Assembly (NCBI GenBank): GCA_937983075.1
Contig: CALKAQ010000062.1
Span: 41,277-105,276, forward strand
Source: an uncultured bacterium
GTDB taxonomy: Bacteria > Bacillota > Limnochordia > DTU080 > JAAYLA01
Direction: 5' to 3'
Length of the DNA: 64,000 nt
The position numbers and the translations under genes were made by a program. The stretch's first letter is position 1. Each line of letters opens with the position of its first letter. Under the pieces are notes generated by a model, which had not been told where the DNA came from, did not search any database, and saw only the letters and a list, made by a program, of their open reading frames with translations. Shown here one piece after another: positions 1,494-57,015 of this stretch.

Positions 1494-2237
1494 TTAACGC
1501 ATGACAAGACCGCCGTCGACCACCAGCGTGTGTCCGGTAATGTACCGTGCCTCATCGCTGGCCAAAAATACAACGGCATGAGCGACATCCTCGGGTTGAC
1601 CGATTGTTCCGAGCGGAATCGCTTCGATAATTCGCTCCCGCACTTTCTCGTCGAGAGCGTCGGTCATATCGGTTGCAATATAGCCAGGTGCGATGGCGTT
1701 GACGGTGATGCCACGTGACGCTGCTTCCTTCGCGAGGCTTTTGGTAAAGCCGATGACTGCAGCTTTAGCGGCGGCGTAGTTTGCCTGGCCTGCATTGCCC
1801 ATCAGGCCAATCACGGACGTTATGTTGATGATACGACCCGAGCGCTGTTTCATCATGGGACGAAGCACGGCCTTGGCGCATCGATACATCGATTTGACGT
1901 TGACCTCCATGACGTCGTCCCAATCAGCGTCTTTCATGCGCAATAAAAGGGTGTCACGCGTGATTCCCGCGTTGTTTACGAGTATGTCGATGGAACCGAA
2001 AGCTTCCTGGACGTCACGGACGAGATTCTGGACGTCTTCTTCCACCGTGACGTCACAGCGAAATCCCCGGGCAATCCCTCCTTGCTCCACGATCGCTTCG
2101 GCTACTTGAATCGCTTTTTCGCCGTCGCGGCCGCATACGGCAACGTGAGCACCTTCTTTTGCAAGGTGCTCCGCTACGGCTCTGCCGATTCCCCGGGTAC
2201 TCCCCGTTACAATAGCCACCTTGTTTGCCAGTCTCAT
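1494..2237 (-). CDS. fabG: 3-oxoacyl-ACP reductase
   Basis: 247 aa SDR with TGSTRGIGRA, NNAGI and YAAAKAA (YxxxK). Its operon position is between fabD and acpP. Confidence 0.93.
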   Translation of the reverse strand: MRLANKVAIVTGSTRGIGRAVAEHLAKEGAHVAVCGRDGEKAIQVAEAIVEQGGIARGFRCDVTVEEDVQNLVRDVQEAFGSIDILVNNAGITRDTLLLRMKDADWDDVMEVNVKSMYRCAKAVLRPMMKQRSGRIINITSVIGLMGNAGQANYAAAKAAVIGFTKSLAKEAASRGITVNAIAPGYIATDMTDALDEKVRERIIEAIPLGTIGQPEDVAHAVVFLASDEARYITGHTLVVDGGLVMR

Positions 2238-3193
2238 CTTACATCATCCCCTTTTGCCCACGCAAGGACTTCATCCCAGCCGGCAGGATCATCAAACCGC
2301 ACGGTCTGCACATCGCGCCGAATGCGTTTAATGAGACCGGAAAGCACCCTGCCCGGGCCTATTTCAAGAAACGTGTCCACTCCTTGCTCAGTCATAAATT
2401 CAACGGATTCCACCCAGCGGACGGGGGAACTTACCTGTTCGATCAGCGACTGTCTGATTTCCTCCGGGGATGCAACCGGACGCGCCGTCACATTGGCGAC
2501 GACGGGGACTTGTGGCGTGCGGATTTCGACATCAGCGAGGGCTTCCCCGAGCTTGCGGCCTGCTTCAGTGAGCAATTTCGAATGAAACGGCCCGCTGACA
2601 TTCAAATGTACCGTCCGCTTGGCCCCGGCCTCGCTTGCTCTCGCTGCCACCGCTTCAACGGCCTTTTTTTCGCCTGCGACGACCGTCTGATCGGGCGCAT
2701 TCAGGGTAGCCGGTACGACGTGGCCCATTCCTTCGCTTTCGACCGCAGCACAGAGTTCGGCGACCCTCGCACTGTCAAGCCCGATAATCGCCGCCATTCC
2801 GCCTTGACCGGCTGGAACCGCTTGTTCCATCAACTGGCCACGAATGCGCACGGTTTTCAACGCCGCGGCAAAATCCATCGCACCGGCGGCAACGAGTGCG
2901 GAATATTCACCCAAACTATGCCCAGCAACAAACACCGGTTGTAAATGTTCTTGTTGCTTTACCAGTTCGAGCAGAGCGCAACTCACCGTCAGCAGGGCCG
3001 GTTGTGTGTTTTCTGTGCGCAGCAGCTCCTCTTCCGGCCCTTCGAAGCACAAGCGCTTGAGGTCAAAACCGAGAACGTCGTTGGCTTCGTCGAATCGAGC
3101 CATGACTTCGGGAAAAGCCTCAGCCAATTCCTTCCCCATGCCGACTACTTGTGAACCTTGACCAGGGAACACCCAAGCCAGCTTTCTAGACAT
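2234..3193 (-). CDS. fabD: malonyl-CoA:ACP transacylase
   Basis: 319 aa with GQGSQ and GHSLGEY motifs. Its stop overlaps the fabG start by 4 nt. Confidence 0.95.
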   Translation of the reverse strand: MSRKLAWVFPGQGSQVVGMGKELAEAFPEVMARFDEANDVLGFDLKRLCFEGPEEELLRTENTQPALLTVSCALLELVKQQEHLQPVFVAGHSLGEYSALVAAGAMDFAAALKTVRIRGQLMEQAVPAGQGGMAAIIGLDSARVAELCAAVESEGMGHVVPATLNAPDQTVVAGEKKAVEAVAARASEAGAKRTVHLNVSGPFHSKLLTEAGRKLGEALADVEIRTPQVPVVANVTARPVASPEEIRQSLIEQVSSPVRWVESVEFMTEQGVDTFLEIGPGRVLSGLIKRIRRDVQTVRFDDPAGWDEVLAWAKGDDVR

Positions 3194-4172
3194 AGGGACG
3201 CACCTCCTCTGCCCATTCGAGCACCGCTGCAGCCCACGTCAATCCGGCACCGAATCCGACCAGCACCAATCGATCACCGGCCGCAATGCGCCCTTGTTGA
3301 AACGCTTCTACTAACGCAATCGGAATAGAAGCCGCCGAGGTGTTTCCGTACTTGGCGACGTTTACAAACACACGTTCCGGCGGCAGATCGAGCCTGCGGG
3401 CCGCGGCATCGATGATGCGTATGTTCGCTTGATGGGGTACGAAAAGATCGATGTCGCTTGGCTCCAAACCGGCCTTTTCAACGACATGTACGGCAGCTTC
3501 TCCCATGATGCGAACGGCGAACTTAAATACGTCGTTTCCCGCCATTTCGATGCAAGCCGGACCGTTCGCTCGCTCGGCAGCACCCGGACCGCTGCCTGCG
3601 ATGCGCAATTTATCTCCGCCGCTGCCGTCCGCGCCCAAGTAGGTTGCCATGACGCCTTGTCCCGAAACCGGCCCCATCAGAACGGCACCGGCGCCATCGC
3701 CAAAAAGCACACACGTGCTTCGGTCGGTGAAATCAGTGACCCGACTGAGCAGATCGGCACCGATCACCAAAATGTACCGATAATTCCCGGACGCAATCAT
3801 TTGGGATGCAACGTCCAAGCCGTAAACAAAACCAGAACATCCGGCCGACAGATCAAATGCGCCCGCATTGGTGCAGCCGAGCTTGTTTTGAACCAAACAA
3901 GCCGTTGAAGGGAACAACATTTCCGGCGTCACCGTGGCGACAATGACAAGATCGACCTCTTCAGGATCGACTCCGGCATGATGCAGTGCTTTGGCACCCG
4001 CTTGAGCCGCCAGTTCCGATGTCGTCATCCCTTCCGGTGCTATCCGCCGTTCTTTGATGCCTGTTCGAGTGGTAATCCACTCATCGGATGTGTCTACCAT
4101 TTTTTCCAAGTCTGCATTGGTCAGCACCTTGTCAGGCACTGCCATCCCAAGTCCTAGGATTCCTGGTCTCAT
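3186..4172 (-). CDS. fabH: 3-oxoacyl-ACP synthase III
   Basis: 328 aa with the AGCSGFVYGL catalytic Cys context, HQAN and GNTSAASIP. Confidence 0.95.
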   Translation of the reverse strand: MRPGILGLGMAVPDKVLTNADLEKMVDTSDEWITTRTGIKERRIAPEGMTTSELAAQAGAKALHHAGVDPEEVDLVIVATVTPEMLFPSTACLVQNKLGCTNAGAFDLSAGCSGFVYGLDVASQMIASGNYRYILVIGADLLSRVTDFTDRSTCVLFGDGAGAVLMGPVSGQGVMATYLGADGSGGDKLRIAGSGPGAAERANGPACIEMAGNDVFKFAVRIMGEAAVHVVEKAGLEPSDIDLFVPHQANIRIIDAAARRLDLPPERVFVNVAKYGNTSAASIPIALVEAFQQGRIAAGDRLVLVGFGAGLTWAAAVLEWAEEVRPYV

Positions 4173-4173
4173 C

Positions 4174-5184
4174 TTATCCTTCCTCTTTTTGCGTGCGGGT
4201 TTGGACCATTTCAGCGATCACACCCGGCAAGTCAACCTGAACGGATTCCATCGCAACGCGAATGGCATTCTTAATCGCTTTCGCATTGGAAGATCCGTGA
4301 GCGATGATGCAAACTCCGTCGACACCGAGCAGTGGTGCGCCGCCGTATTCGGTATAGTCCAGTCGCTTTACAATGCCCTTGAGGGCCGGCTTCAACAAAA
4401 GCCCTCCCAAACGGGAACGCCAGCTCGCTTGAATGCCTTGTCGGAGCAGCCCGAAAATGCTTTCCGACATCCCTTCGGCAAATTTCAGCACAACATTTCC
4501 GATAAAGCCGTCGCAGACCAAAACGTCGACTTTTCCTTTAGTGATGTCCCGGCCTTCAATGTTGCCGACAAAGTTGATAGAACCGTCTTCCTTGAAACGA
4601 CTATACGCTTGCAGGACAAGATCATTGCCTTTGCTCGCTTCTTCGCCGTTGCTCAGAAGTCCAAGACGCGGCCGGGCGATCCCCAATATGCGTTCGGCAT
4701 ACGCCAAGCCCATCAGCCCGAACTGGTACAGATGGCTGGAACGGCAATCGACGTTGGCTCCGACATCGACGACCAGGCAGCCACCGGTCTCGGTCGGCAA
4801 TACGGTGCCGATCGCCGGCCGTTCGATTCCCTGAATGCGGCCTAAGCCGAGCAGCGCCGCAACCATGGTAACCCCTGTATTGCCGGCGCTGATCATCGCA
4901 TCAGCTTGCCCTTCTTTCACCATCCGGGCCGCAATGACGATCGGCGCTTCCTTATGCTTGCGAACAGCTTCGGTGGGGACGGCATCCATACCGATGTCGT
5001 CGTTGGCGGGGACGACGTGGATTGCTTTCTGCCAATACGGTGAACGCTGAACCAAAGGCACGATCTGATCTTCTTTGCCGATGAGGGTTACTTCACAGCC
5101 GTATTCCGCAACTGCCAGTTCTGCCCCCCGTACAATTTCAATGGGAGCGTGATCTCCTCCCATGGCGTCAACTGCAATTTTCAC
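4174..5184 (-). CDS. plsX: phosphate acyltransferase PlsX
   Basis: 336 aa. MKIAVDAMGGDHAP is a typical PlsX N-terminus. It lies downstream of fapR as in Bacillus. Confidence 0.95.
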   Translation of the reverse strand: MKIAVDAMGGDHAPIEIVRGAELAVAEYGCEVTLIGKEDQIVPLVQRSPYWQKAIHVVPANDDIGMDAVPTEAVRKHKEAPIVIAARMVKEGQADAMISAGNTGVTMVAALLGLGRIQGIERPAIGTVLPTETGGCLVVDVGANVDCRSSHLYQFGLMGLAYAERILGIARPRLGLLSNGEEASKGNDLVLQAYSRFKEDGSINFVGNIEGRDITKGKVDVLVCDGFIGNVVLKFAEGMSESIFGLLRQGIQASWRSRLGGLLLKPALKGIVKRLDYTEYGGAPLLGVDGVCIIAHGSSNAKAIKNAIRVAMESVQVDLPGVIAEMVQTRTQKEEG

Positions 5185-5789
5185 GCTTGGCCTCCCCCCG
5201 GCGAAATCGGCTTCGTGGCAGTCCTGTCATTCGCAAACGAAAAGACGGTAAACATGCCACGAAATACAACTTTGTCTTGCACCTTGCTTTCAACGCTCAC
5301 CAACCATTTCGAACCCCTTCGCTGAACAACTTGTGCTTCCGCCACAATCGTTTCGCCCACATTGACAGGCTGCAAAAAGCGCATTCGGACCGAGCCGGTC
5401 AGAGCCTTTTCAGCGTCGACGACAGCCACGGCGAGCGAATTGGCCTGCCCGAATATGTAATGACCACGAACAATGGGCTGATCGATGAATCCCATCGAAC
5501 GATCGGCGACCAAGCTCGAGCGCCCTGACTGCCCGAGTTTGAGGTCAAGCAATTCCCCCATCACATCGTCAATCAACATCGACCGGATTTGCTGCACGCG
5601 GCTCGCCAATTCACGGGCCCGCTCCCGCATTTCGGGCAGCCCCAGCTGGAGCCGGTCCAGTCGGATCGTCTGTACACTGACGCCGAAACGGGCGGCAAGA
5701 GCAGCATCCGTCAACAGCGGATCCTCTTCGAGTGCTCGAAGCAACGCCTCTTGCCGTTCTTGTTTTCGCTTGCGCCTTACCATTTTCAA
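5181..5789 (-). CDS. fapR: fatty acid/phospholipid biosynthesis repressor FapR
   Basis: 202 aa with an N-terminal HTH (GVSVQTIRLDRLQLGL) and a hot-dog thioesterase-like domain. It is the first gene of the plsX-fab operon, and its stop overlaps the plsX start. Confidence 0.88.
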   Translation of the reverse strand: MKMVRRKRKQERQEALLRALEEDPLLTDAALAARFGVSVQTIRLDRLQLGLPEMRERARELASRVQQIRSMLIDDVMGELLDLKLGQSGRSSLVADRSMGFIDQPIVRGHYIFGQANSLAVAVVDAEKALTGSVRMRFLQPVNVGETIVAEAQVVQRRGSKWLVSVESKVQDKVVFRGMFTVFSFANDRTATKPISPGGGQA

Positions 5790-5853
5790 CGTCCTCTGCA
5801 GACCTGCATATAATCAAGCCAGTCCAATGGCCGGCAATATCTATGACAACATA

Positions 5854-5897
5854 TTAACATCTGGTACTAATTATACGAAAAAGTGATTGGCACGCAA
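5854..5897 (-). promoter_or_regulatory. sigmaA-type promoter with FapR-operator-like inverted repeat
   Basis: On the minus strand: TTGCGT (5897-5892), a 16-nt spacer, then TATAAT (5875-5870). This is immediately followed by TTAGTACCAGATGTTAA (5870-5854), an imperfect palindrome resembling the Bacillus FapR box (TTAGTACC..GGTACTAA half-sites). It lies about 65 nt upstream of the fapR start. Confidence 0.6.
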
Positions 5898-5957
5898 GGG
5901 ACAATTGCCCAATGCAAACTATCTTTTTCTTCAGGCAAAACGAGCCTCTTGGCGCGC

Positions 5958-5994
5958 AAAAGGTGTCGAAACGGCCGATGCCGCCGACACCTTT
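5958..5994 (-). terminator. rho-independent terminator after rpmF
   Basis: Stem AAAGGTGTCG/CGACACCTTT with a 16-nt loop, about 25 nt downstream of the rpmF stop. On the minus strand the 3' arm runs into TTTT. Confidence 0.55.
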
Positions 5995-6019
5995 CTCGAG
6001 GAAATATGTGACGCAAAAA

Positions 6020-6208
6020 CTATGCTTCTTCGGAAGCTACCTGGATGACCGCGCGGCCATCGTAGTAACCGCAGTGGCCGCATACGTGATGTGGGCGCCT
6101 TGGTTCCTGGCACTGAGGGCAGGTTACCAACGTAGGTGCGACGAGCTTCCAGTTCGCGCGTCGCTTAGCCGACCGTGCTTTCGATTGACGCCGCTTTGGT
6201 ACTGCCAT
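6020..6208 (-). CDS. rpmF: 50S ribosomal protein L32
   Basis: Internal ATG at 6208 gives MAVPKRRQSKARSAKRRANWK..CPQCQEPRRPHHVCGHCGYY (L32 with zinc ribbon). SD GGAGGAG lies 7 nt upstream. The longer track ORF (to 6328) is an artefactual extension. Confidence 0.95.
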   Translation of the reverse strand: MAVPKRRQSKARSAKRRANWKLVAPTLVTCPQCQEPRRPHHVCGHCGYYDGRAVIQVASEEA

Positions 6209-6249
6209 AATCGTCTCCTCCTCGTCCGAACGGAAACCTCTTGATCGTT

Positions 6250-6768
6250 TTATTGCTCTTTCGCATCCGTCCGGAGCTGCCATTCCTTGAGTGCGGCAAG
6301 TCGGGGATCGATCGTTTCCATGCGACAATCACACGCAGTCTCATTGCGATCGACGCCGCACTGCGGACAGATTCCCTCGCAATCCTCCCGACAAAGCAGC
6401 TTCATCGGCAGTGCGAGGACAATCTGTTCCTGCACGGCCTCCGTCAAATCGATTTCGGATCCGTGAAAAGAGCGTATTTCCTCATCCAAATCGTCAAACG
6501 AATCCGGTGATCCATTCGTATCAACTGCATCGTCGTCAGATTCGGCTGCCGGGCGATAGACCTCATGCAAAGGGACTCGCAAATGCCACGGATATTCTTT
6601 CAAGCAGCGGCTGCATGTCAAAGCGAGATCCGCCTCGACATTCCCTTGCACTAAATAACAAATGCCCGTATTTGTGACACGGGCTTCAACCCGAAGCGGT
6701 GTACCATCGATAAAGTGTATTTGTTCATCGGGTGACTCGGGTTCCGGCTCTTCAAACTGAACCAGCAT
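6250..6768 (-). CDS. yceD: DUF177 (YceD/YlbN) large-subunit biogenesis protein
   Basis: Sits directly upstream of rpmF as in most bacteria. It has the C-terminal CxxC..C.C cluster (CREDCEGICPQCGVDRNETACDC). The start is placed at ATG 6768, with SD AGGGTG 5 nt upstream. Confidence 0.85.
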   Translation of the reverse strand: MLVQFEEPEPESPDEQIHFIDGTPLRVEARVTNTGICYLVQGNVEADLALTCSRCLKEYPWHLRVPLHEVYRPAAESDDDAVDTNGSPDSFDDLDEEIRSFHGSEIDLTEAVQEQIVLALPMKLLCREDCEGICPQCGVDRNETACDCRMETIDPRLAALKEWQLRTDAKEQ

Positions 6769-50990: not shown

Positions 50991-52826
50991 TCAAAAGAAC
51001 ACGGCCCGAATCAAGAGGATGCTCGCCGTCATGACCACAAAGAACAAGGGAAGGCCAACCCGTACGAAATCGACAAACCGATAGTTGCCCGGCCCTATCA
51101 CCAATGCGTTCACCGGCGACGAAACCGGCGTGATGAAGGCAGCCGACGCAGCGAGCGCGACCGTCATGCCAAACGCTTGCGGCGGCAATCCGAGTTCAGT
51201 GGCAAGCGCAATAGCAACGGGTGCCATCAGTACAGCGGTTGCCGTGTTCGATATAAAGAGACCGAGAATGGCGGTAACGGCATACACCGCAATCAGCATG
51301 ATCATGGGATCGGCATCGCCCATGGCGCCAAGGAGCGCCTGCACCGCCAAATCGACGCCTCCGGTATTTTGCAATGCGATCGAAAACGGCAGCATACCGA
51401 CGATTAAAAACAGCGTGGGCCACTGAATCGCTCGATACACCGTATTGATGTCGATACAGCGGAAAAGTCCGAGCAGCAGGCACCCGATGAGCGCGGCTTG
51501 CACGTTTGGCACAGCTCCTGTCACCATCAATGCGATGACAACCGCCAAGGACGCGATCGCCAAAGGAGCCCGCGCCGGCAATGCAATGACATCGTCCAGC
51601 TCAGCAGGCATATTGAGCACGATGATTTCCCGTGGGTCGGACCGCAACCGCTTAATCGCCTTCCATGGCCCGGCTACGAGCAGCGTGTCTCCGAGCCGAA
51701 ACACCACATCCTGCAGCGATTCGGTTATGGGGGTTTTGCCCCGCTTGATCCCGACAATGGAGAGCTTATAAGTAGTGCGAAAACCTGCAGTGATCGCGGT
51801 TTTCCCAATCAAGCCCGATTCAGCCGGAATTATGAGTTCAACCATGCCCACGGTTTGCGAGGCGTCCGTCAAATAATCATCCGACATGGGCAATTCGAAT
51901 AGGTCGAAACGTTGACACAGACCGTCCAAACCCGCAGGTGGCTCCTTGAAATCGACGAAAAGGACATCACCTGCTTCCAACACGGTTTCTGCCGACGGCT
52001 CCACAATTTGCGCAGCAAAACGGCGTTGTCGTTCGATGGCGAGGACATTCATGCCGTGCTCTGAGCGAAGCTGCAGTTCTCTCAGCCGCTTCCCTACCCA
52101 AGGTGATCTCACACCAATGCGGAGGCGGTATTCCCGCCCGGTGAGGCCATATTCCTCTACCCATTGTGATAAGCGAGGCTTTCGAGCCTTTTCCTTCGTT
52201 TCTTCCGCCGGCTTCCTCCGAGAGAGCCAGTGGCGGGTCATAATCATGTAAATTACGGCAACGATGAGAATCGGCACACCAAATACGGTGAACGAAAAAA
52301 ACTGAAAGCCTTCGTATCCGGCACGTACCAGTTGGCTATGCACAACAAGATTCGGCGGTGTTCCGATGAGTGTCATCATCCCGCTAATCAACGCACCCAC
52401 ACTGAGGGGCATCATCAACTTTCCCGGAGCGATGCCGGTGTTTCGGGCGATACGCAACACCGCCGGAATAAAAATGGCGACGACACCGGTTGAACTCATC
52501 ACGGACCCGATGGTGGCGACAACTACCATCAAAAATGCGATCAACCGCGTTTCGCTGTTCCCAGCACGCCGCACCAAAGCATCGCCAAGCCGCTGGGCGA
52601 CGCCTGTACGCACAAGCCCTTCCCCGATCACAAACAGGGCGCCAATGAGCACGATATTTGGATCGCTCAATCCGGAGAGGGCATCGGAAACGGAAATCAC
52701 CCCGGTGAGCGGCAGCAAAGTCATCATGATCAGGGCCACTGCGTCCATGCGCGGCCGATTCAACATAAACATGACGATGGTTGCCGTCAGAAGCAGTGAA
52801 ACAATAGCGAGTTCCCAAGTCATCAA
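50991..52826 (-). CDS. SLC13/DASS-type permease with two central TrkA-C (RCK_C) domains
   Basis: 611 aa with two multi-TM halves (..SSTGVVAIFIPA.., ..SNTATAVLMAPVAI..). They flank two TrkA-C-like repeats (RLRIGVRSPWVGKRLRELQL.., ELIIPAESGLIGKTAI..). Confidence 0.82.
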   Translation of the reverse strand: MMTWELAIVSLLLTATIVMFMLNRPRMDAVALIMMTLLPLTGVISVSDALSGLSDPNIVLIGALFVIGEGLVRTGVAQRLGDALVRRAGNSETRLIAFLMVVVATIGSVMSSTGVVAIFIPAVLRIARNTGIAPGKLMMPLSVGALISGMMTLIGTPPNLVVHSQLVRAGYEGFQFFSFTVFGVPILIVAVIYMIMTRHWLSRRKPAEETKEKARKPRLSQWVEEYGLTGREYRLRIGVRSPWVGKRLRELQLRSEHGMNVLAIERQRRFAAQIVEPSAETVLEAGDVLFVDFKEPPAGLDGLCQRFDLFELPMSDDYLTDASQTVGMVELIIPAESGLIGKTAITAGFRTTYKLSIVGIKRGKTPITESLQDVVFRLGDTLLVAGPWKAIKRLRSDPREIIVLNMPAELDDVIALPARAPLAIASLAVVIALMVTGAVPNVQAALIGCLLLGLFRCIDINTVYRAIQWPTLFLIVGMLPFSIALQNTGGVDLAVQALLGAMGDADPMIMLIAVYAVTAILGLFISNTATAVLMAPVAIALATELGLPPQAFGMTVALAASAAFITPVSSPVNALVIGPGNYRFVDFVRVGLPLFFVVMTASILLIRAVFF

Positions 52827-52909
52827 CGCTTCAATCGTTCCAATCTTGGCAGCCCTTAGGTGCCGATATTTTGTCCGACATGTGACTTCAATATCTTGTG
52901 CCTACACCG

Positions 52910-53305
52910 TTACTGAATGTAAATCCGGTACGACGTGATTTCTTTTATTTTAGCCTTCTTGCCGAAACCGCTGAATCGATAGACATCGCAATACTCCATG
53001 CGGCTGCCGTCTTGCATGATGACTGTAGCATTTGCCGCAGCCGTATTGCCGTGAGTAATGATATGGTGGATACGCAACTCCGTGGGTTGACCCGCACGAT
53101 CGTTGGCCATTTGCGCACGAATAGCTTCGATGCCAACATGGCGTGGACCGCCGACAACAACCCTCACGGCTTCGTCAGCCAGTTGGTCAAGGAACTTCTG
53201 TCCGCGATCTCCCCAGTAATCAATGCTTATTTCCTTTATCAGCAACTTTTTCGGAGCGTTCCCGCAATCTTCGACGCACTCAACTAGCAACGATTTCGCC
53301 TCCAT
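52910..53305 (-). CDS. NTF2-like (SnoaL-type) small protein
   Basis: 131 aa whose length and alpha+beta cone pattern fit the family (..IHHIITHGNTAAANATVIMQDGSRMEYCDVYRF..). The assignment is low-specificity. Confidence 0.5.
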   Translation of the reverse strand: MEAKSLLVECVEDCGNAPKKLLIKEISIDYWGDRGQKFLDQLADEAVRVVVGGPRHVGIEAIRAQMANDRAGQPTELRIHHIITHGNTAAANATVIMQDGSRMEYCDVYRFSGFGKKAKIKEITSYRIYIQ

Positions 53306-53320
53306 ATATTAGGACAAGCG

Positions 53321-53845
53321 CTACACCTCAGCCAGCTCTTTCTGTGCGATAATCATGTCAACCACATCAGCCACCGAATGTTCCGAGTTGTCTATCCACA
53401 AACCGATGTTCTGGAGTTCGGCGCGAATAATTTCGTCAAGATGAGCCCATAGATGCGCCACGGTCTTCTCCGGCCGATTTTTATCCCTTTGCAAGGCAAC
53501 TTCAACCGGGGGACCGAGGGTGACCAGACGAACTTTATAACCGTCAAGGTGTCGTCGGTACTCTTCTACACGATCCCGACTGACAACGACGTAATCAAGT
53601 ACGGGAGTGAAGCCGTCTTGTGCAAATGATTGAGCGAGCAGACACTGGTTGCGCACATTCAGATGAATTTGGCGCTCCGCTTCGTCATCCGGTTCTCCTC
53701 CGGGCCAAACACCTCCTGTCACAATGAATTCTTGCAAGCGATCTCCTTCAATATGAACACCTTTCTCAAAACGAGCAGCCAGTGCGTGAGCTGTCGTCGA
53801 TTTGCCTGAACCTGGAATGCCATTGATGATCCAAACGTCTCTCAT
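53321..53845 (-). CDS. P-loop kinase (AAA_33 / phosphotransferase-like)
   Basis: 174 aa with WIINGIPGSGKST (Walker A). Its size and layout resemble small-molecule/nucleotide kinases. SD AGGGGGG lies upstream. Confidence 0.65.
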   Translation of the reverse strand: MRDVWIINGIPGSGKSTTAHALAARFEKGVHIEGDRLQEFIVTGGVWPGGEPDDEAERQIHLNVRNQCLLAQSFAQDGFTPVLDYVVVSRDRVEEYRRHLDGYKVRLVTLGPPVEVALQRDKNRPEKTVAHLWAHLDEIIRAELQNIGLWIDNSEHSVADVVDMIIAQKELAEV

Positions 53846-54178
53846 CGAACAATTACCCCCCTACACAGAAGAAGCGCCCTCGGCCGTTCGCCCAACGTCT
53901 TGATACACAAGCGTTCCTGACTATGCTTCCGCTTTTCGCCCCATATTTTTGGATACCCTTTATAAAATCATCCGGCACATACTTTGATCAAGGTGAGGTC
54001 TGTGGTTCGATTCACTTGTACAATAAGCTGGGAAGGTGAAGGAATGGGGAAGGTTTTGAACTTGTTGCGGCGCTATTGGCTATTTAGGATAATCAAGCCC
54101 ATGGCAAAGCAGGCGGCACACATGATGAGCGCCCCTTTCTTTGCCGATTGACTCTGTGCTGATATCGAGCGAAGACGT

Positions 54179-55039
54179 CTAACCCGACATAAGATCGTCC
54201 AAAGCCTGATCCAAGGACTCGAGCAGCTTCTTTTCCTGGAGTTCTGCCCAGGCACGCTGCGCCTGTACCCGCCGCAGGTATTCCCGGTACTTTAAGTTGC
54301 TTTTCCGTACATCTTCATGAAGATCTTTAAGATGGTACCTCGGCACTTCATCCGGCACGCAGTGGATGATGATGTAATTCCCTTCGATCCAAGCGCGGCG
54401 CCACCTGGAGTGTCTGGGAAACCGCCGTTCGGCTTCGAAAATTTGTATCCACTTTTCCGGGGGAGCGGATGAGATTTCCAGATAGACGTGGAAGAGGAGT
54501 TTGTCCGGATCGGGACGATACGTCTTGTCCTTGGCAATCCCGACGATGCGGATGTCTTCGAAATCTTCGAGATGAGAAACATGCGGCGTCCCTTCGGAAG
54601 GAACCCACTCCGGCATCTTAAGTGATGATTCACACACTGTCATGGCGGGGCAGAGTATTTGCAGCAGTTGTGCCAACGACCGGTCGAAAGCGGAGGGATC
54701 TGTGAAGTCGGCGTAGATTCTATCTTTCAGAAACAAGGGGATGTCACACGGTTCAAGCAAAATGGGAAGCACTTTGATTCGGCGCCCGGCAATTTCCTCG
54801 GTGATGGCAAGGAAGAGTTCTTTTTGAACCCACCTCGATTGCACCGAGTTGCGTGAGAGGATGACCGCTACGAAATCCACTGTTTCAAATGCCTGGCTTA
54901 TCCTCTCGATGAGCGAGTCGCCGATCCCGAGTTCCGCATCATCTATCCAAACATCGACACCGTATTTTTTCAGACTGTCAGCTAGCTTTCGCGCAAAGAA
55001 CTTGTCCTTCCAACTGTGGCTCAGAAACACCGCGGGCAT
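54179..55039 (-). CDS. TIR-domain protein with uncharacterised C-terminal domain
   Basis: ATG 55039 (SD AAGGGGGA 7 nt upstream) gives 286 aa. The N-terminal ~135 aa are TIR-like (MPAVFLSHSWKDKFFARKLADSLKKYGVDVWIDDAELGIGDSL...FVAVILSRNSVQSRWVQKELFLAI...KVLPILLEP). The C-terminal ~150 aa are unassigned. The track ORF start at 55108 is an extension. Confidence 0.8.
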   Translation of the reverse strand: MPAVFLSHSWKDKFFARKLADSLKKYGVDVWIDDAELGIGDSLIERISQAFETVDFVAVILSRNSVQSRWVQKELFLAITEEIAGRRIKVLPILLEPCDIPLFLKDRIYADFTDPSAFDRSLAQLLQILCPAMTVCESSLKMPEWVPSEGTPHVSHLEDFEDIRIVGIAKDKTYRPDPDKLLFHVYLEISSAPPEKWIQIFEAERRFPRHSRWRRAWIEGNYIIIHCVPDEVPRYHLKDLHEDVRKSNLKYREYLRRVQAQRAWAELQEKKLLESLDQALDDLMSG

Positions 55040-55104
55040 TGCTCTTCCCCCTTTGAAAGCCGACGTTAGTCGTATAAAGCCTGCAGGGATTCTCCTTTGC
55101 CGTC

Positions 55105-55251
55105 TCACTTGATCGATGACAGCGTCACCGCACAGCCTCGCGATGACTTCGACTGTTCCAGCGCGTCAAAACCACCTCCACAAAATCTAAAATTTAAAAC
55201 AATAGAACCTCCCTTCTCCAACACCACTTGTTTAATGAATATTTTTTTCAC
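55105..55251 (-). CDS. 48-codon ORF with strong SD (possible HesB/IscA-like fragment or leader peptide)
   Basis: Not in the track (under 60 aa). AGGAGG (55262-55257), 5 nt, then GTG 55251. Hand translation gives MKKIFIKQVVLEKGGSIVLNFRFCGGGFDALEQSKSSRGCAVTLSSIK. The DNA is AT-rich. It ends 65 nt before the TIR start. Confidence 0.35.
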   Translation of the reverse strand: MKKIFIKQVVLEKGGSIVLNFRFCGGGFDALEQSKSSRGCAVTLSSIK

Positions 55252-55310
55252 GCCTGCCTCCTTCTTCCTTTCGGACGAGCGACCTAAGATGAATAGTCCA
55301 ATGGTCCGCC

Positions 55311-55514
55311 TCAGCGCTCTCCACCGACTGTCGGGCGAATCAGTCCGAAATACGCCCCAACCGGATCCTGAACAACCGCAAATACGTACTCTCCATCTTC
55401 TTCTCGCACCGCTTTGATCACTTCGCCCCCTTCTTCCTGTACACGCCGCACGCTTTCAGCCAGGTCTCCCACCGTTAAGTAGATGATCCACACCGGCGGT
55501 AAGTCGGCATTCAC
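55311..55514 (-). pseudogene. truncated glyoxalase/VOC-family gene (C-terminal half only)
   Basis: 67 aa (..VWIIYLTVGDLAESVRRVQEEGGEVI.....YVFAVVQDPVGAYFGLI) equals one beta-alpha-beta-beta-beta module of a VOC protein, about half the normal length. No room exists for the other half before the DUF4256 stop at 55548. Confidence 0.5.
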
Positions 55515-55547
55515 ACCCCGCGCATGACATATTGCTGCTGCCGCCCA

Positions 55548-56090
55548 CTAGACTTTCAACAGACCGCGGAAGCCTCGGCTGGCATAGTAGGATTCAGCGC
55601 TGTTGTGGTACACGAAAACCCGGTTGTAACAACGATCACAAAATAGAGCGCCACCAAGCGTGCGGATGCTCTCAGGCGTTTTCACCCAGCTGGAAGTCTT
55701 TCTGTCGAATTCCCCCAGCTTTTGCAATTCCCGATATTGCTCTTCCGTGAGCATTTCAATGCCCATCTCAGCCGCCATTTCCATGGCGCTGCCCTCGGGC
55801 TTGTGTTTTTTTCGCGCCTCGAGCGCGGCACGGTCGTAACAAAGGCTCCGTCGGCCCGCCGGACTTTCTGGAGAACAATCGTAAAAGATGAATGCTCCGG
55901 ACGCTTCATCATAACCAACCACATCGGGTTCGCCGCCGGTTCGTTCCATTGCCGAAAGTGAGCGGAGCTTTTCCGGCTGTGCCTGCAGCCTTGCTTCCAC
56001 CGCGCTCCAGTCGATTCCGGGATGACGATTCATGTTTTTCTCGAAGCGCTCTTTAAGCGTTTTGATCAGCTCTTCATATGCTGCTTCCAT
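55548..56090 (-). CDS. DUF4256 family protein
   Basis: 180 aa. The overall pattern (..MERTGGEPDVVGYD.....FYDCS.ESP.GRRSLCYD..A...RK..KP..SA..MA..MGIE.LTEEQYR.LQ....D.KTSSW..TP..IR.LGGALF.D) matches my recollection of DUF4256. Confidence 0.6.
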   Translation of the reverse strand: MEAAYEELIKTLKERFEKNMNRHPGIDWSAVEARLQAQPEKLRSLSAMERTGGEPDVVGYDEASGAFIFYDCSPESPAGRRSLCYDRAALEARKKHKPEGSAMEMAAEMGIEMLTEEQYRELQKLGEFDRKTSSWVKTPESIRTLGGALFCDRCYNRVFVYHNSAESYYASRGFRGLLKV

Positions 56091-56127
56091 TGGGTTACCC
56101 GCCCTTCCTTACTTATCATTCACTCGA

Positions 56128-57015
56128 TCATCCGCCGTAGCGGCGTAATATGCGATCAACGGCTGGGCCATAAGATTCACCAAAGAGATTCAGATGGACT
56201 AGCAAGTAGTAAAGCTGATATAACGCTTCGCGATCTTGGTGGCCGGGGCGAACCGGAAATTCCTCGTTGTAGGCCCTGTAGAACTCCGGAGGAAAGCCGC
56301 CAAAAAGACGTGACATCGCTAGATCCATTTCACGGTCACCATAGCAGACGGCAGGATCGATGAGAGCAGGTCCGTGACGCGTGGCAAGCCAGTTTCCCCC
56401 CCACAAATCGCCATGGAGGAGCGAAGGTTCAACTTCCGCTTCGTCGATCCATTCCGGCAATCGATCGAGGAGACGGTCTGCAAGTCGGCGCCGGTTCGAT
56501 CCAAAGCGGCCTTTTTGTGCAGCAAGCTCCATTTGCGGCAGCAGTCGAGCTTCACGATAAAAATCAATCCAGCTCGGCTGCCAAGGATTGTTCTGCGGCA
56601 ACATGCCGATGAAATTGTTTTCCTCGAAGCCGTAACGGTCCCGTGTCATCCGATGCAGGTGAGCGAGCCCCCGTCCAAGCTCCGCTCCCTGCTCTCTTTC
56701 GGCGCCAGCCGCCGGTTCAAGCCACTCGAGCAAAATGCCTTCGGCGTCGACGGCAAACACTTCTGGTACGCGCAGTGCCCGGGCTGTTCGCAATTCTTGC
56801 AGTCCGCGTGCTTCCGCTGCGAAGAAATGTTTTGGCGCGTCGAGGCGAATTTTTGCCAGCCAAACTTGGCCATTTGCCGCTTCGAGTCGGAAGACTTGAT
56901 TGATATCGCCGCCGGCTAGCCGAGTCCAACGCAGGTCGTCAAGCGAAGTTGCCTCTGCAGCCTCAGTGAAGAGGCGGCGCACGACCGCCGCCTCCTCCTC
57001 AAAACGGCCAATCAT
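56128..57015 (-). CDS. fructosamine/ketosamine-3-kinase family protein
   Basis: 295 aa with FFAAEARGL and the catalytic LLHGDLWGGNW. Confidence 0.85.
   Translation of the reverse strand: MIGRFEEEAAVVRRLFTEAAEATSLDDLRWTRLAGGDINQVFRLEAANGQVWLAKIRLDAPKHFFAAEARGLQELRTARALRVPEVFAVDAEGILLEWLEPAAGAEREQGAELGRGLAHLHRMTRDRYGFEENNFIGMLPQNNPWQPSWIDFYREARLLPQMELAAQKGRFGSNRRRLADRLLDRLPEWIDEAEVEPSLLHGDLWGGNWLATRHGPALIDPAVCYGDREMDLAMSRLFGGFPPEFYRAYNEEFPVRPGHQDREALYQLYYLLVHLNLFGESYGPAVDRILRRYGG

Follow-up and report, generated by a model that had tools for sequence, protein, structure and literature searches.

Organization of the TIR-CTD locus

Within the window, that is, the whole stretch of 64,000 nucleotides that was analysed, the list of open reading frames places an intact frame at 54179..55039 of the reverse strand (coordinates including the stop codon), a real gene encoding 286 residues. 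[quoted passage not shown] A longer form initiated at GTG (to 55108, 309 aa) has an unlikely start, because homologues all begin with M-x-x-[IV]-FLSH and because reading of the sequence revealed a Shine-Dalgarno-like AAAGGGGGAAGAG at 55042-55054, upstream of the start of the 286-aa form.

The gene is flanked by its own intergenic DNA. The upstream non-coding region (55040..55310, -), in which this ribosome-binding site lies, shares 69-71% identity, with indels, with the relative L005. Rfam returned zero matches in it in a scan that spanned 52-57 kb, and a 48-codon ORF inscribed in it was rejected as a gene, its frame being broken in L005. In the downstream non-coding region (53846..54178, -) a weak terminator-like hairpin was located at 54097-54114; in the terminator scan downstream of the gene, such sites were no commoner than in shuffles. 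Near 54077, the comparison with L005 exposes the boundary between a diverged TIR block and a near-identical kinase block.

Outside the TIR unit lies a 67-aa ORF (55311..55514, -), which is what remains of the 3' part of a VOC/glyoxalase gene. Its match to Glyoxalase_6 is weak and limited to the C-terminal end of that profile, and the ORF aligns to positions 3777-3972 of L005, where a 276-aa VOC gene ends. Two L005 segments, 2119-3776 and 3973-5861, have been lost from the window by deletion upstream of the TIR gene. It was these deletions, and not insertion of the TIR gene, that truncated the VOC gene, and the earlier view of this ORF and of the 48-codon ORF as insertion debris was abandoned.

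Composition and history of the locus

The stretch had also been taken for an AT-rich islet. The GC content of 53846-55310 is indeed low (0.506, which ranks within the bottom 0.6% of stretches of the same length), but the shortfall from the mean of the window (0.558) is just about 5 points, the low-GC zone extends from 52.6 to 55.3 kb such that it takes in both neighbouring genes, and the GC3 (z = -0.14) and codon usage (log-likelihood z = -0.46) of the TIR-CTD gene are ordinary. Neither the absence from close relatives nor the codon deviation expected of such an islet was found, and the gene occupies the same locus in the relatives L005-L010. Compared with L005, it has a dS of 0.74 and an ω of 0.16, a sign of purifying selection, whereas dS is 0.93 in the transporter, 1.02 in the DNA_alkylation gene, 1.42 in the methyltransferase and 0.07 in the flanking kinase. 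Given the ordinary codon usage, the synteny and the background-level dS, we rejected a recent horizontal acquisition or a genomic island, and with it the proposal of a recently inserted islet: the TIR-CTD gene is a long-standing, stably inherited resident of the locus. The contrast between 0.74 and the 0.07 of the kinase had raised the idea of TIR-specific recombination or diversifying selection; this was rejected too, because divergence is as high or higher in the transporter, DNA_alkylation and methyltransferase genes, and it is the near-identical blocks that stand out.

The TIR domain

Residues 1-130 (54650..55039, -) were delimited as the TIR domain from Pfam TIR_2, AF2/Foldseek and PDB sequence matches. 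TIR_2 covers residues 4-126 (E=5.8e-29, 101.5 bits vs a cutoff of 28), and the Pfam TIR profile gave 41.7 bits against a cutoff of 21.3. The AF2 model of this part has the alternating β and α elements of the flavodoxin-like TIR fold. When the whole AF2 model was searched with Foldseek, the best 50 matches were all TIR domains, with BtTir, PdTIR and AbTir at the top (E about 1e-7; TM-score, normalised by target length, about 0.7), and among PDB sequences the TIR part matched 3h16 and 7uwg (E about 1e-11).

A WxxxE motif of helix αC, W70-V-Q-K-E74 (54818..54832, -), was aligned in the PDB sequence search to WPQKE in PdTIR and WTNYE in AbTir. Its putative catalytic Glu, E74, is located where the preliminary description had placed it, and neither W70 nor E74 varies among 48 family members. 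The functional residues of AbTir are W204/E208, E208 being catalytic (PMC10641520). Judged from its sequence, the TIR domain of TIR-CTD is probably NAD-cleaving. Effector-type TIRs are its best match, since retron-TIR outscores Thoeris ThcB4 among NCBIfam models (70 vs 25 bits) and PDC-S66, bSEFIR and SAVED-TIR outscore ThsB in PADLOC. The same TIR clade (40-55% identity) is found elsewhere fused to TM, kinase, EEP, vWA and repeat modules, a shuffling among many modules that is typical of conflict systems.

The linker, the CTD and the tail

Residues 131-157 (54569..54649, -) constitute a flexible, disordered linker, with a pLDDT below 50 at residues 136-157 in the AF2 model, a length that differs among family members and fast evolution (ω = 1.17 vs L005). 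The core of the CTD, residues 158-257 (54269..54568, -), is modelled by AF2 as ββαββ plus the start of a long helix that spans residues 231-284; modelled alone, the CTD reached a pLDDT of 87.9 and a pTM of 0.78. Residues 140-286 had been said to fit no nameable family, and this was confirmed: they had no match in the Pfam, NCBIfam and PADLOC models or among PDB sequences, and the fold check that had been suggested, a Foldseek search of PDB folds with the CTD-only model, assigned no fold family (none significant, best E 0.19). The α/β sandwiches of the DCoH/PCD, Pcc1, Rpb11 and ACT types were rejected as homologues, with non-significant TM-scores of 0.3-0.46. The CTD is a new domain, undescribed in Pfam, NCBIfam, PADLOC and the PDB in both sequence and fold.

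Conservation is stronger in the CTD than in the TIR domain: its ω is 0.05 vs L005, and 24 columns are invariant in the alignment of 25 sequences. Among the invariant positions are E204, R205, F207, P208, R209 and H210 of the motif E204-R-R-F-P-R-H210, in the loop after the CTD helix (54410..54430, -), followed by W213 and R214. Together with C227 and H236, H210 may make up a metal site. The remaining part (54182..54268, -), defined from AF2 and conservation, comprises a helical tail (258-275) and a terminal motif. Residues 259-275 are charged and almost devoid of large hydrophobic residues, and at the end of the tail, in L276xxxL280xxL283xF/S285, positions 276, 280, 283 and 285 are conserved as hydrophobic; the L276xxxL280xxL283 motif is found in stand-alone CTD homologues too. 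A classical heptad coiled coil was rejected for the tail, as 259-275 is nearly free of hydrophobics and a dominant 3.5-residue period is absent; the tail, through which together with the CTD an oligomerisation could be driven, departs from that type of structure.

Distribution and genomic contexts

Clustered at 90% identity, the homologues of TIR-CTD number at least 338 and come from five or more phyla; over 100 match the full length with 50-60% identity. The distribution is patchy, covering Planctomycetota, Verrucomicrobiota, Bacteroidota, Bacillota and Gammaproteobacteria, and the nearest named relatives of the protein belong to other phyla. Across ten independent contexts (the window and nine others) we found no conserved neighbour or partner gene. 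Three of the ten are defence-like: L032, with GAP1-N1, PycTIR-like and HTH-TIR genes; L110, with PLDc_2, helicase, GmrSD and TA genes; and L014, where a second TIR gene adjoins. Most of the contexts, this window included, are housekeeping DNA. Other family members adjoin IS3 transposase genes or TA pairs, and the member in L110 is split by a frameshift.

In agreement with the preliminary description, neither ThsA, STING, Argonaute or cyclase genes nor helicase or nuclease genes were found within about 10 kb in the window. The adjoining AAA_33/CPT/zeta-like kinase was rejected as a partner because the adjacency is limited to this lineage. A contig scan with the neighbouring CitMHS transporter retrieved four alphaproteobacterial MAG loci at 54-56% identity, and a Spore_YtfJ gene is present on the same contig as the TIR-CTD gene, which suggests that the host is a spore-forming Bacillota.

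The CTD outside TIR-CTD proteins

A CTD profile matched 577 cluster representatives, a large family lacking annotation. Stand-alone proteins of about 130 aa account for 112 of 167 representative clusters, and the CTD is thus an autonomous module. Some of the stand-alone genes sit in mobile-element-like DNA, adjoining integrase, primase, DnaB and Cro-like genes; PHROG annotation of the genes flanking stand-alone CTDs gave a single uninformative match. The CTD was also found fused to a degenerate GGDEF-like N-terminus (P0220), and separate CTD genes beside other TIR proteins were encountered in none of 68 loci.

The sole library family matching the CTD is phrog_26863, composed of phage proteins of unknown function, to which the likeness is remote. 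The match is weak and repeated, being obtained with five of the eight members tested (E 3e-5 to 2e-2), and it spans nearly the whole 87-position profile. Pfam at E ≤ 5 revealed no recurrent family in 56 stand-alone members. In IMG/VR viral contigs, neither the CTD alignment nor two stand-alone proteins retrieved a match, and tblastn with the CTD and two stand-alone proteins yielded zero in the 50,697 phage records of INPHARED and in PLSDB plasmids.

Comparison with known TIR systems

Bacterial TIR proteins are a main route for sensing infection and collapsing NAD+, and the switch-on of each of them depends on its non-TIR module. Single-protein TIR defence systems exist, so the idea of a self-contained sensor-effector is reasonable for TIR-CTD. 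SpbK, from ICEBs1 of B. subtilis, is a single-protein TIR antiphage NADase in which trigger-induced clustering of TIR domains was demonstrated (PMC12847820). Like TIR-CTD, it is a single chain of comparable length (266 vs 286 aa) lacking a partner gene, in which a flexible linker of some 20-30 residues joins a small non-TIR domain to a TIR NADase; induced clustering is the model that we propose for TIR-CTD. However, the sensor of SpbK is N-terminal, such that the order of domains is reversed in TIR-CTD, and it is a 4-helix bundle unrelated to the ββαββ sheet and long helix of the CTD; moreover, SpbK is encoded in a conjugative element, whereas TIR-CTD has a chromosomal gene in a syntenic position. 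The PDB matches, by sequence (E up to 1) or by fold, included no chain under the name SpbK.

By sequence (E about 1e-11 to 1e-12) and fold, the closest TIR domains are those of AbTir, BtTir, PdTIR and TcpB-type proteins, with which the WxxxE is shared, but in these an N-terminal helical or coiled-coil part precedes the TIR, whereas in TIR-CTD the TIR comes first and an unrelated α/β domain after. The E. coli proteins TIR-II, V, VI and IX are single-gene TIR proteins that restrict phages in dependence on conserved TIR active-site residues (PMC11350192); unlike TIR-CTD, they contain TPR/ATPase modules or are short and made of a TIR alone, and the CTD was reported in none.

Among defence-database models, retron-TIR (type XII), PDC-S66 and bSEFIR scored best for the TIR part, but the matches are confined to this domain, and the TIR of PDC-S66 is C-terminal. 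A type XII retron was rejected, there being no reverse transcriptase and no Rfam match in 52-57 kb, and the NCBIfam match covering profile positions 342-457 only, at 70 bits vs a cutoff of 600. Thoeris (ThsB plus ThsA) was discarded with no SIR2, Macro or SLOG gene within about 10 kb or beside distant homologues and ThsB_TIR below its cutoff. Neither does TIR-CTD fit a TIR effector of CBASS/Pycsar, as no cyclase is nearby, SAVED_TIR matches the TIR part only and CAP12-PCTIR_TIR gave 21.9 vs a cutoff of 24.7. SPARTA was rejected with no Ago gene nearby and the PADLOC Aga_TIR models matching residues 3-146 only; in Foldseek alignments to TIR-APAZ chains, the RMSD outside the TIR domain was about 25 Å.

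Proposed function and alternatives

We propose that TIR-CTD is a self-contained, single-polypeptide TIR enzyme of the conflict/defence type that would cleave NAD+ upon SpbK-like induced clustering through the new domain, a reading that we judge to have an even chance of being right. A one-gene role in phage defence is plausible. This is close to the self-contained sensor-effector of the preliminary description, of which the stand-alone gene, the catalytic-type Glu, the unassigned CTD and the lack of a linked partner in ten contexts were sustained, whereas only three of the ten resemble defence islands. Arguing for defence are the WxxxE TIR, the effector-type best scores, the modular build, the patchy spread among phyla, the three defence-like contexts, the phage links of the CTD and the single-protein precedents; against it, no defence model of PADLOC or NCBIfam corresponds to the CTD, the contexts are mostly housekeeping, inheritance is stable and composition ordinary, and searches of IMG/VR, INPHARED phages and PLSDB plasmids did not recover the family.

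In the proposed mechanism, the C-terminal module would be the control part and at rest would keep the TIR domains separate or paired in an inactive form. Binding of a trigger by the CTD would gather several copies of TIR-CTD; candidates for the trigger are a multimeric component of a phage or mobile element and a ligand with a phosphate group, which the invariant ERRFPRH-x-x-WR patch would hold. The clustered TIR domains would then build a head-to-tail interface that creates the active sites, and the cleavage of NAD+, by depletion or through an ADPR-derived product, would stop the growth of the infected cell.

A sensor that tracks fast-evolving phage proteins would not usually be conserved above the TIR domain, as the CTD is; such conservation is easier to reconcile with a ligand that is itself conserved, either cellular or a small molecule. 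TIR-CTD could instead serve ordinary physiology (stress, dormancy or sporulation) as a regulated NADase or an enzyme of nucleotide signalling, its TIR switched on by binding of a conserved cellular ligand or complex to the CTD, and the invariant Arg/His-rich patch kept across phyla, the stable, syntenic gene of ordinary codon usage, the mostly housekeeping neighbourhoods and the fusion to the GGDEF-like N-terminus are all consistent with this. We nevertheless consider it rather unlikely in view of the patchy cross-phylum spread with the nearest named relatives in other phyla, the lack of a conserved neighbour or pathway context, the several members in defence-like or IS-flanked DNA, the stand-alone CTDs in mobile-element-like DNA and the shuffling of the TIR clade. 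If true, a bacterial TIR would here have a role outside immunity, which is rare.

The weak matches to ThsB-type TIR models and to ThcB4 of Thoeris type III, together with the closest solved TIRs, AbTir and BtTir, which make cADPR isomers, would suit a Thoeris-like signal generator whose cyclic ADPR isomer activates an effector encoded elsewhere in the genome. Such pairs of signal and effector are normally linked in defence systems, yet ThsA-like SIR2, Macro and SLOG genes are missing within some 10 kb of this gene and next to the homologues examined, and ThsB_TIR reached 17.5 bits, below its cutoff of 21.2, which makes this reading improbable. Least probable of all is that the gene forms a selfish module resembling a toxin or an addiction system, or that it is decaying and has no current function: some members do adjoin TA pairs or transposases, the one in L110 is frameshift-split and deletions occurred near the window locus, but the frame here is intact and under purifying selection over a dS of about 0.7, hundreds of full-length homologues are intact, and no conserved antitoxin-like small gene adjoins, the 48-codon ORF not being conserved.

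The self-contained enzyme that we favour would belong to a compact, widespread family whose control domain has no entry in Pfam, NCBIfam, PADLOC or the PDB, is conserved above the enzyme itself and exists in more than 100 stand-alone clusters. Characterisation of the CTD would supply the TIR toolkit with a new module for sensing or assembly and give a name to a sizeable uncharacterised protein family. A bolder version, which we regard as a long shot, is that the CTD may be a domain family native to phages and mobile elements that bacteria captured as an "integrated decoy" on a TIR NADase, such that TIR-CTD would co-assemble with the CTD-like protein of the invader, or with the target of that protein, clustering the TIRs and collapsing NAD+. 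Such an origin is suggested because the stand-alone genes of about 130 aa adjoin integrase, primase and DnaB genes and because of the relatives in phrog_26863. TIR-CTD would then be a bacterial counterpart of the integrated-decoy domains in plant TIR-NLRs, and the phage link, if true, would mean that hosts borrow domains of their invaders for detection.

The TIR gene and its WxxxE motif

The open reading frame at 54179-55039 on the reverse strand, proposed in the preliminary description as an orphan TIR gene, proved to be a real gene of 286 aa with its ATG at 55039. An alternative in-frame GTG at 55108 would give a 309-aa form; we place the start at the ATG because all homologues in the family alignment begin with M-x-x-[IV]-FLSH and a purine-rich ribosome-binding site, AAAGGGGGAAGAG (55042-55054), lies 2 nt ahead of it. 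Residues 4-126 match Pfam TIR_2 (E=5.8e-29, 101.5 bits against a cutoff of 28), and the protein also matches Pfam TIR (E=1.4e-10). The group nearest to its TIR domain is formed by PdTIR (3h16, 5.7e-12), AbTir (7uwg and 8g83, about 3-6e-11) and BtTir (7uxr), the closest solved structures by sequence, which a fold search with an AF2 model of the protein retrieved again. In HMMER alignments, WVQKE was aligned with WPQKE of PdTIR and with WTNYE of AbTir, whose WxxxE motif comprises W204 and the catalytic E208 (PMC10641520). As W70 and E74 are also invariant in the 48-member family alignment, the earlier recognition of a TIR domain with a glutamate at the catalytic position was correct.

In the defence libraries, effector-type TIRs scored above ThsB and ThcB4 for the TIR part: retron-TIR 70 bits and Thoeris III ThcB4 25 bits in NCBIfam, and PDC-S66 72.6, bSEFIR 63.6, SAVED-TIR 50.8 and ThsB 40 bits in PADLOC. 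For each of Thoeris, retron-TIR, CBASS/Pycsar TIR effectors, SPARTA and PDC-S66, a defining feature was looked for and was absent, and membership in these systems was rejected.

A conserved C-terminal domain with stand-alone members

The AF2 model based on the family alignment places the TIR domain at residues 1-129 and a disordered linker (pLDDT below 50) at 136-157, followed by a C-terminal domain (CTD) made of strands 165-174 and 183-189, helix 195-204, strands 216-219 and 222-227 and a helix at 231-284; modelled alone, the CTD is confident (pLDDT 87.9, pTM 0.78). That this part could be assigned to no family was borne out by our searches: the CTD matched nothing in Pfam, NCBIfam or PADLOC, its profile matched no PDB sequence, and Foldseek with the AF2 model found nothing significant in the PDB (best E 0.19), the TM-scores of 0.3-0.46 to DCoH/PCD, Pcc1, Rpb11 and ACT-type small α/β sandwiches being non-significant. 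The best match in BFVD was one unnamed viral protein (E 0.026; TM-score normalised to query length 0.62). A heptad coiled coil was rejected for the tail, where residues 259-275 are charged and nearly devoid of large hydrophobic residues; an L-x3-L-x2-L-x-F/S motif is conserved in the final ten residues, also in stand-alone CTD relatives.

A search with the complete protein gave 338 relatives at E ≤ 1e-3, counted as clusters at 90% identity; over 100 of these span the full length (284-300 aa) at 50-60% identity. Named sources are Planctomycetota (including Ca. Wujingus and Brocadiaceae), Verrucomicrobiales, Bacteroidetes, Bacillota and Gammaproteobacteria (Nevskia). Conservation across the family alignment is higher in the CTD than in the TIR domain. 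Invariant CTD positions include P176, S190, P193, W197, F201, E204, R205, F207, P208, R209 and H210 as well as W213, R214, C227, E231, H236, D239, D243, N248, Y251 and R252.

A CTD-core profile run against 1.84 billion representatives recovered 577 proteins at E ≤ 1e-3, with 230 at ≤ 1e-10. Stand-alone proteins (modal length 127-133 aa, domain start at residue 2-10) made up 112 of the 167 classified representatives and TIR+CTD proteins 40; the other 15 had short or unannotated N-termini of other kinds, one resembling a degenerate GGDEF domain. The CTD is an autonomous and widespread module. Pfam searches of 56 stand-alone members gave no recurrent family. The one repeated match, to the functionally unannotated phage family phrog_26863 of PHROGs, is weak and spans nearly the whole 87-position profile: the window CTD matches it with an E of 9e-5, and of seven stand-alone members four do so with an E of 3e-5 to 2e-2. 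Three of the stand-alone genes are on long contigs, where they adjoin a D5-type primase and many small ORFs (L106, 6001-6375), an integrase, an HNH gene and a Cro-like repressor (L107, 6001-6390), and thymidylate synthase, DnaB and an HTH gene (L108, 6001-6390), surroundings reminiscent of mobile elements or phages. When IMG/VR, INPHARED and PLSDB were searched directly for the CTD family, nothing was found; the putative phage link is based on the PHROG profile and gene context. The novelty lies in the non-TIR module: it represents an unannotated domain family of high conservation, which includes numerous stand-alone proteins and has a remote relative among phage proteins.

History and composition of the locus

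P0002, a protein 80% identical to the TIR-CTD protein, is encoded on contigs L005-L010 of relatives, in the order FN3K, DUF4256, a 156-aa gene, RibD_C, VOC (276 aa), α/β-hydrolase, TIR, AAA_33 kinase, SnoaL and CitMHS transporter. By BLASTN, positions 2119-3776 and 3973-5861 of L005 are missing from the window, and at 55311-55550 of the window, corresponding to L005 2119-5861, four genes between DUF4256 and TIR are gone: the 156-aa gene, RibD_C, most of the two-domain VOC and the S15/αβ-hydrolase. The 67-aa "VOC" ORF at 55311-55514 aligns with the final ~200 nt (~65 codons) of the 276-aa VOC gene of L005. What had been read as insertion debris is therefore a scar of deletions lying upstream of the TIR gene, which was already present. 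The 48-codon ORF regarded as another upstream neighbour is interrupted in L005 and is not a gene.

Between the window and L005 lineages, dS was 0.07 for the kinase and for FN3K, 0.11 for SnoaL, 0.47 for DUF4256, 0.74 for TIR-CTD, 0.93 for the transporter, 1.02 for DNA_alkylation and 1.42 for the methyltransferase, such that the divergence of the TIR-CTD gene is at the background level for the locus. The gene has been kept at this locus since the two lineages split, under purifying selection (ω = 0.16 overall; 0.18 in the TIR domain, 1.17 in the linker, 0.05 in the CTD core and 0.04 in the tail). Same-locus retention, background-level dS and this ω rule out a freshly inserted islet.

The AT-richness described for 53846-55310 stood in rank only: its GC of 0.506 (0.558 for the window) ranks within the bottom 0.6% of windows of that length, and the two flanks of the gene, at 0.489 and 0.480, compare with 0.520 ± 0.050 on average in unassigned stretches, but the dip is small and the low-GC zone (~52.6-55.3 kb) takes in the SnoaL and kinase genes. 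The TIR-CTD gene itself is unremarkable among 55 gene-like ORFs (GC z = -1.3, GC3 z = -0.14, codon-usage log-likelihood z = -0.46). With its small dip, ordinary codon usage and retained position, the locus lends no support to an island. No Rfam family matched in 52-57 kb, and promoter-like and terminator-like sites around the locus were not commoner than in shuffles.

Window 50991-57015 is a mosaic against L005, in which the kinase, SnoaL and FN3K are 96-100% identical and TIR, transporter, DNA_alkylation and methyltransferase have dS of 0.7-1.4, with a sharp boundary near 54077, ~100 bp beyond the TIR stop codon. This suggests that some blocks were recently exchanged by recombination or that the metagenome contigs are chimeric. 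The downstream neighbour is a 174-aa P-loop kinase (53321-53845, reverse strand) with matches to AAA_33, chloramphenicol-phosphotransferase-like and zeta-toxin profiles. It shares 99.4% identity with the copy in the relative and adjoins the TIR gene in this lineage only; 55 contigs carry exactly this kinase sequence, and 17 carry that of the TIR-CTD protein.

Genomic contexts

The absence of a partner held on a wider view: across ten independent contexts no conserved neighbour was found, the gene usually being flanked by intergenic spacers of its own, and within ~10 kb in the window only housekeeping or unannotated genes occur (tRNA methyltransferase, VTT, an OmpR/HK pair, transporter, SnoaL, kinase, DUF4256, FN3K, DNA_alkylation and methyltransferase). 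Three contexts are defence-like. In L032 (4160-13808), a conflict-type cluster holds GAP1-N1, a CAP12/PycTIR-like TIR (PDC-S35), two unannotated genes, an N-extended TIR-CTD protein (494 aa) and an HTH-TIR (PDC-S66-like), with three different TIR proteins inside 7 kb. L110 has PLDc_2, ResIII helicase, GmrSD, nucleotidyltransferase and TA-like genes, and a frameshift divides its TIR-CTD gene (5773-6654) into a TIR fragment of 69 aa and a remainder of 217 aa, either a pseudogene or a sequencing error. In L014, a second TIR protein adjoins the gene. In L026 (1516-6176), IS3 OrfA-like (HTH transposase) genes lie on both sides of the family member, an arrangement that looks like a composite transposon; in L012 the member is accompanied by a transposase fragment and a MazE/PIN pair, and L011 has HicAB ~6.6 kb away. 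L018, L034 and the window lack such defence-, transposon- or TA-type genes near the TIR-CTD gene. Together, these contexts are suggestive of a candidate conflict gene. In L016 (9432-14554), KilA-N, OmpA-like, caspase-like (Peptidase_C14) and DUF945 genes lie downstream of the family member and may form another conflict module.

A metagenome scan gave 12 full-length members and 68 loci sharing the TIR part only (40-57% identity), the latter joined to transmembrane segments, protein-kinase-like, EEP-like or vWA-like domains, helical repeats or other ~130-aa tails; none of the 68 has a separate CTD gene. The TIR clade is modular. Fusion examples are L038 839-1813, L040 1778-3661, L063 4916-6424 and L089 9992-11221, and a 257-258-aa form with another unannotated tail recurs among L037-L104.

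Possible function

The active sites of TIR NADases arise between TIR domains upon self-association. In the one-gene defence protein SpbK of B. subtilis, a 94-residue sensor domain is followed by an 18-residue linker and the TIR domain, and docking on the dodecameric phage portal clusters the TIRs and turns on NAD+ cleavage (PMC12847820); E. coli is protected by several TIR systems that consist of one protein, and this protection depends on the TIR active site (PMC11350192). By analogy with both, the TIR-CTD protein would work in an SpbK-like manner, with CTD and tail as the clustering or sensing part. Since the CTD is very highly conserved and bears an invariant ERRFPRH-x-x-WR patch, we argue that the trigger itself is probably conserved. 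It may be a small ligand that bears phosphate, a nucleic acid, a guarded host complex or a CTD-like invader protein, a fast-evolving phage structural protein being less likely.

What is established is a TIR domain whose WxxxE motif is intact, joined by a flexible tether that evolves quickly to an autonomous C-terminal module under strong constraint; no partner gene is linked to it. We put a defence or conflict NADase at about even odds, ahead of the other readings. A physiological NADase switch seems unlikely. A generator of a Thoeris-like signal whose effector is unlinked is quite improbable, and a selfish or decaying module is more improbable again. The function as a defence NADase is inferred, and the protein is a good candidate for experiment.

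Unannotated N-terminal extensions are found in a recurrent 388-aa form, seen in Brocadiaceae and Bacteroidetes MAGs, and in longer forms. They measure ~100-200 aa in many members (P0056, P0074, P0101 and other 388-aa forms; P0123, P0137, P0149), have no Pfam match except DUF7669 in P0149, and may be extra sensor domains.
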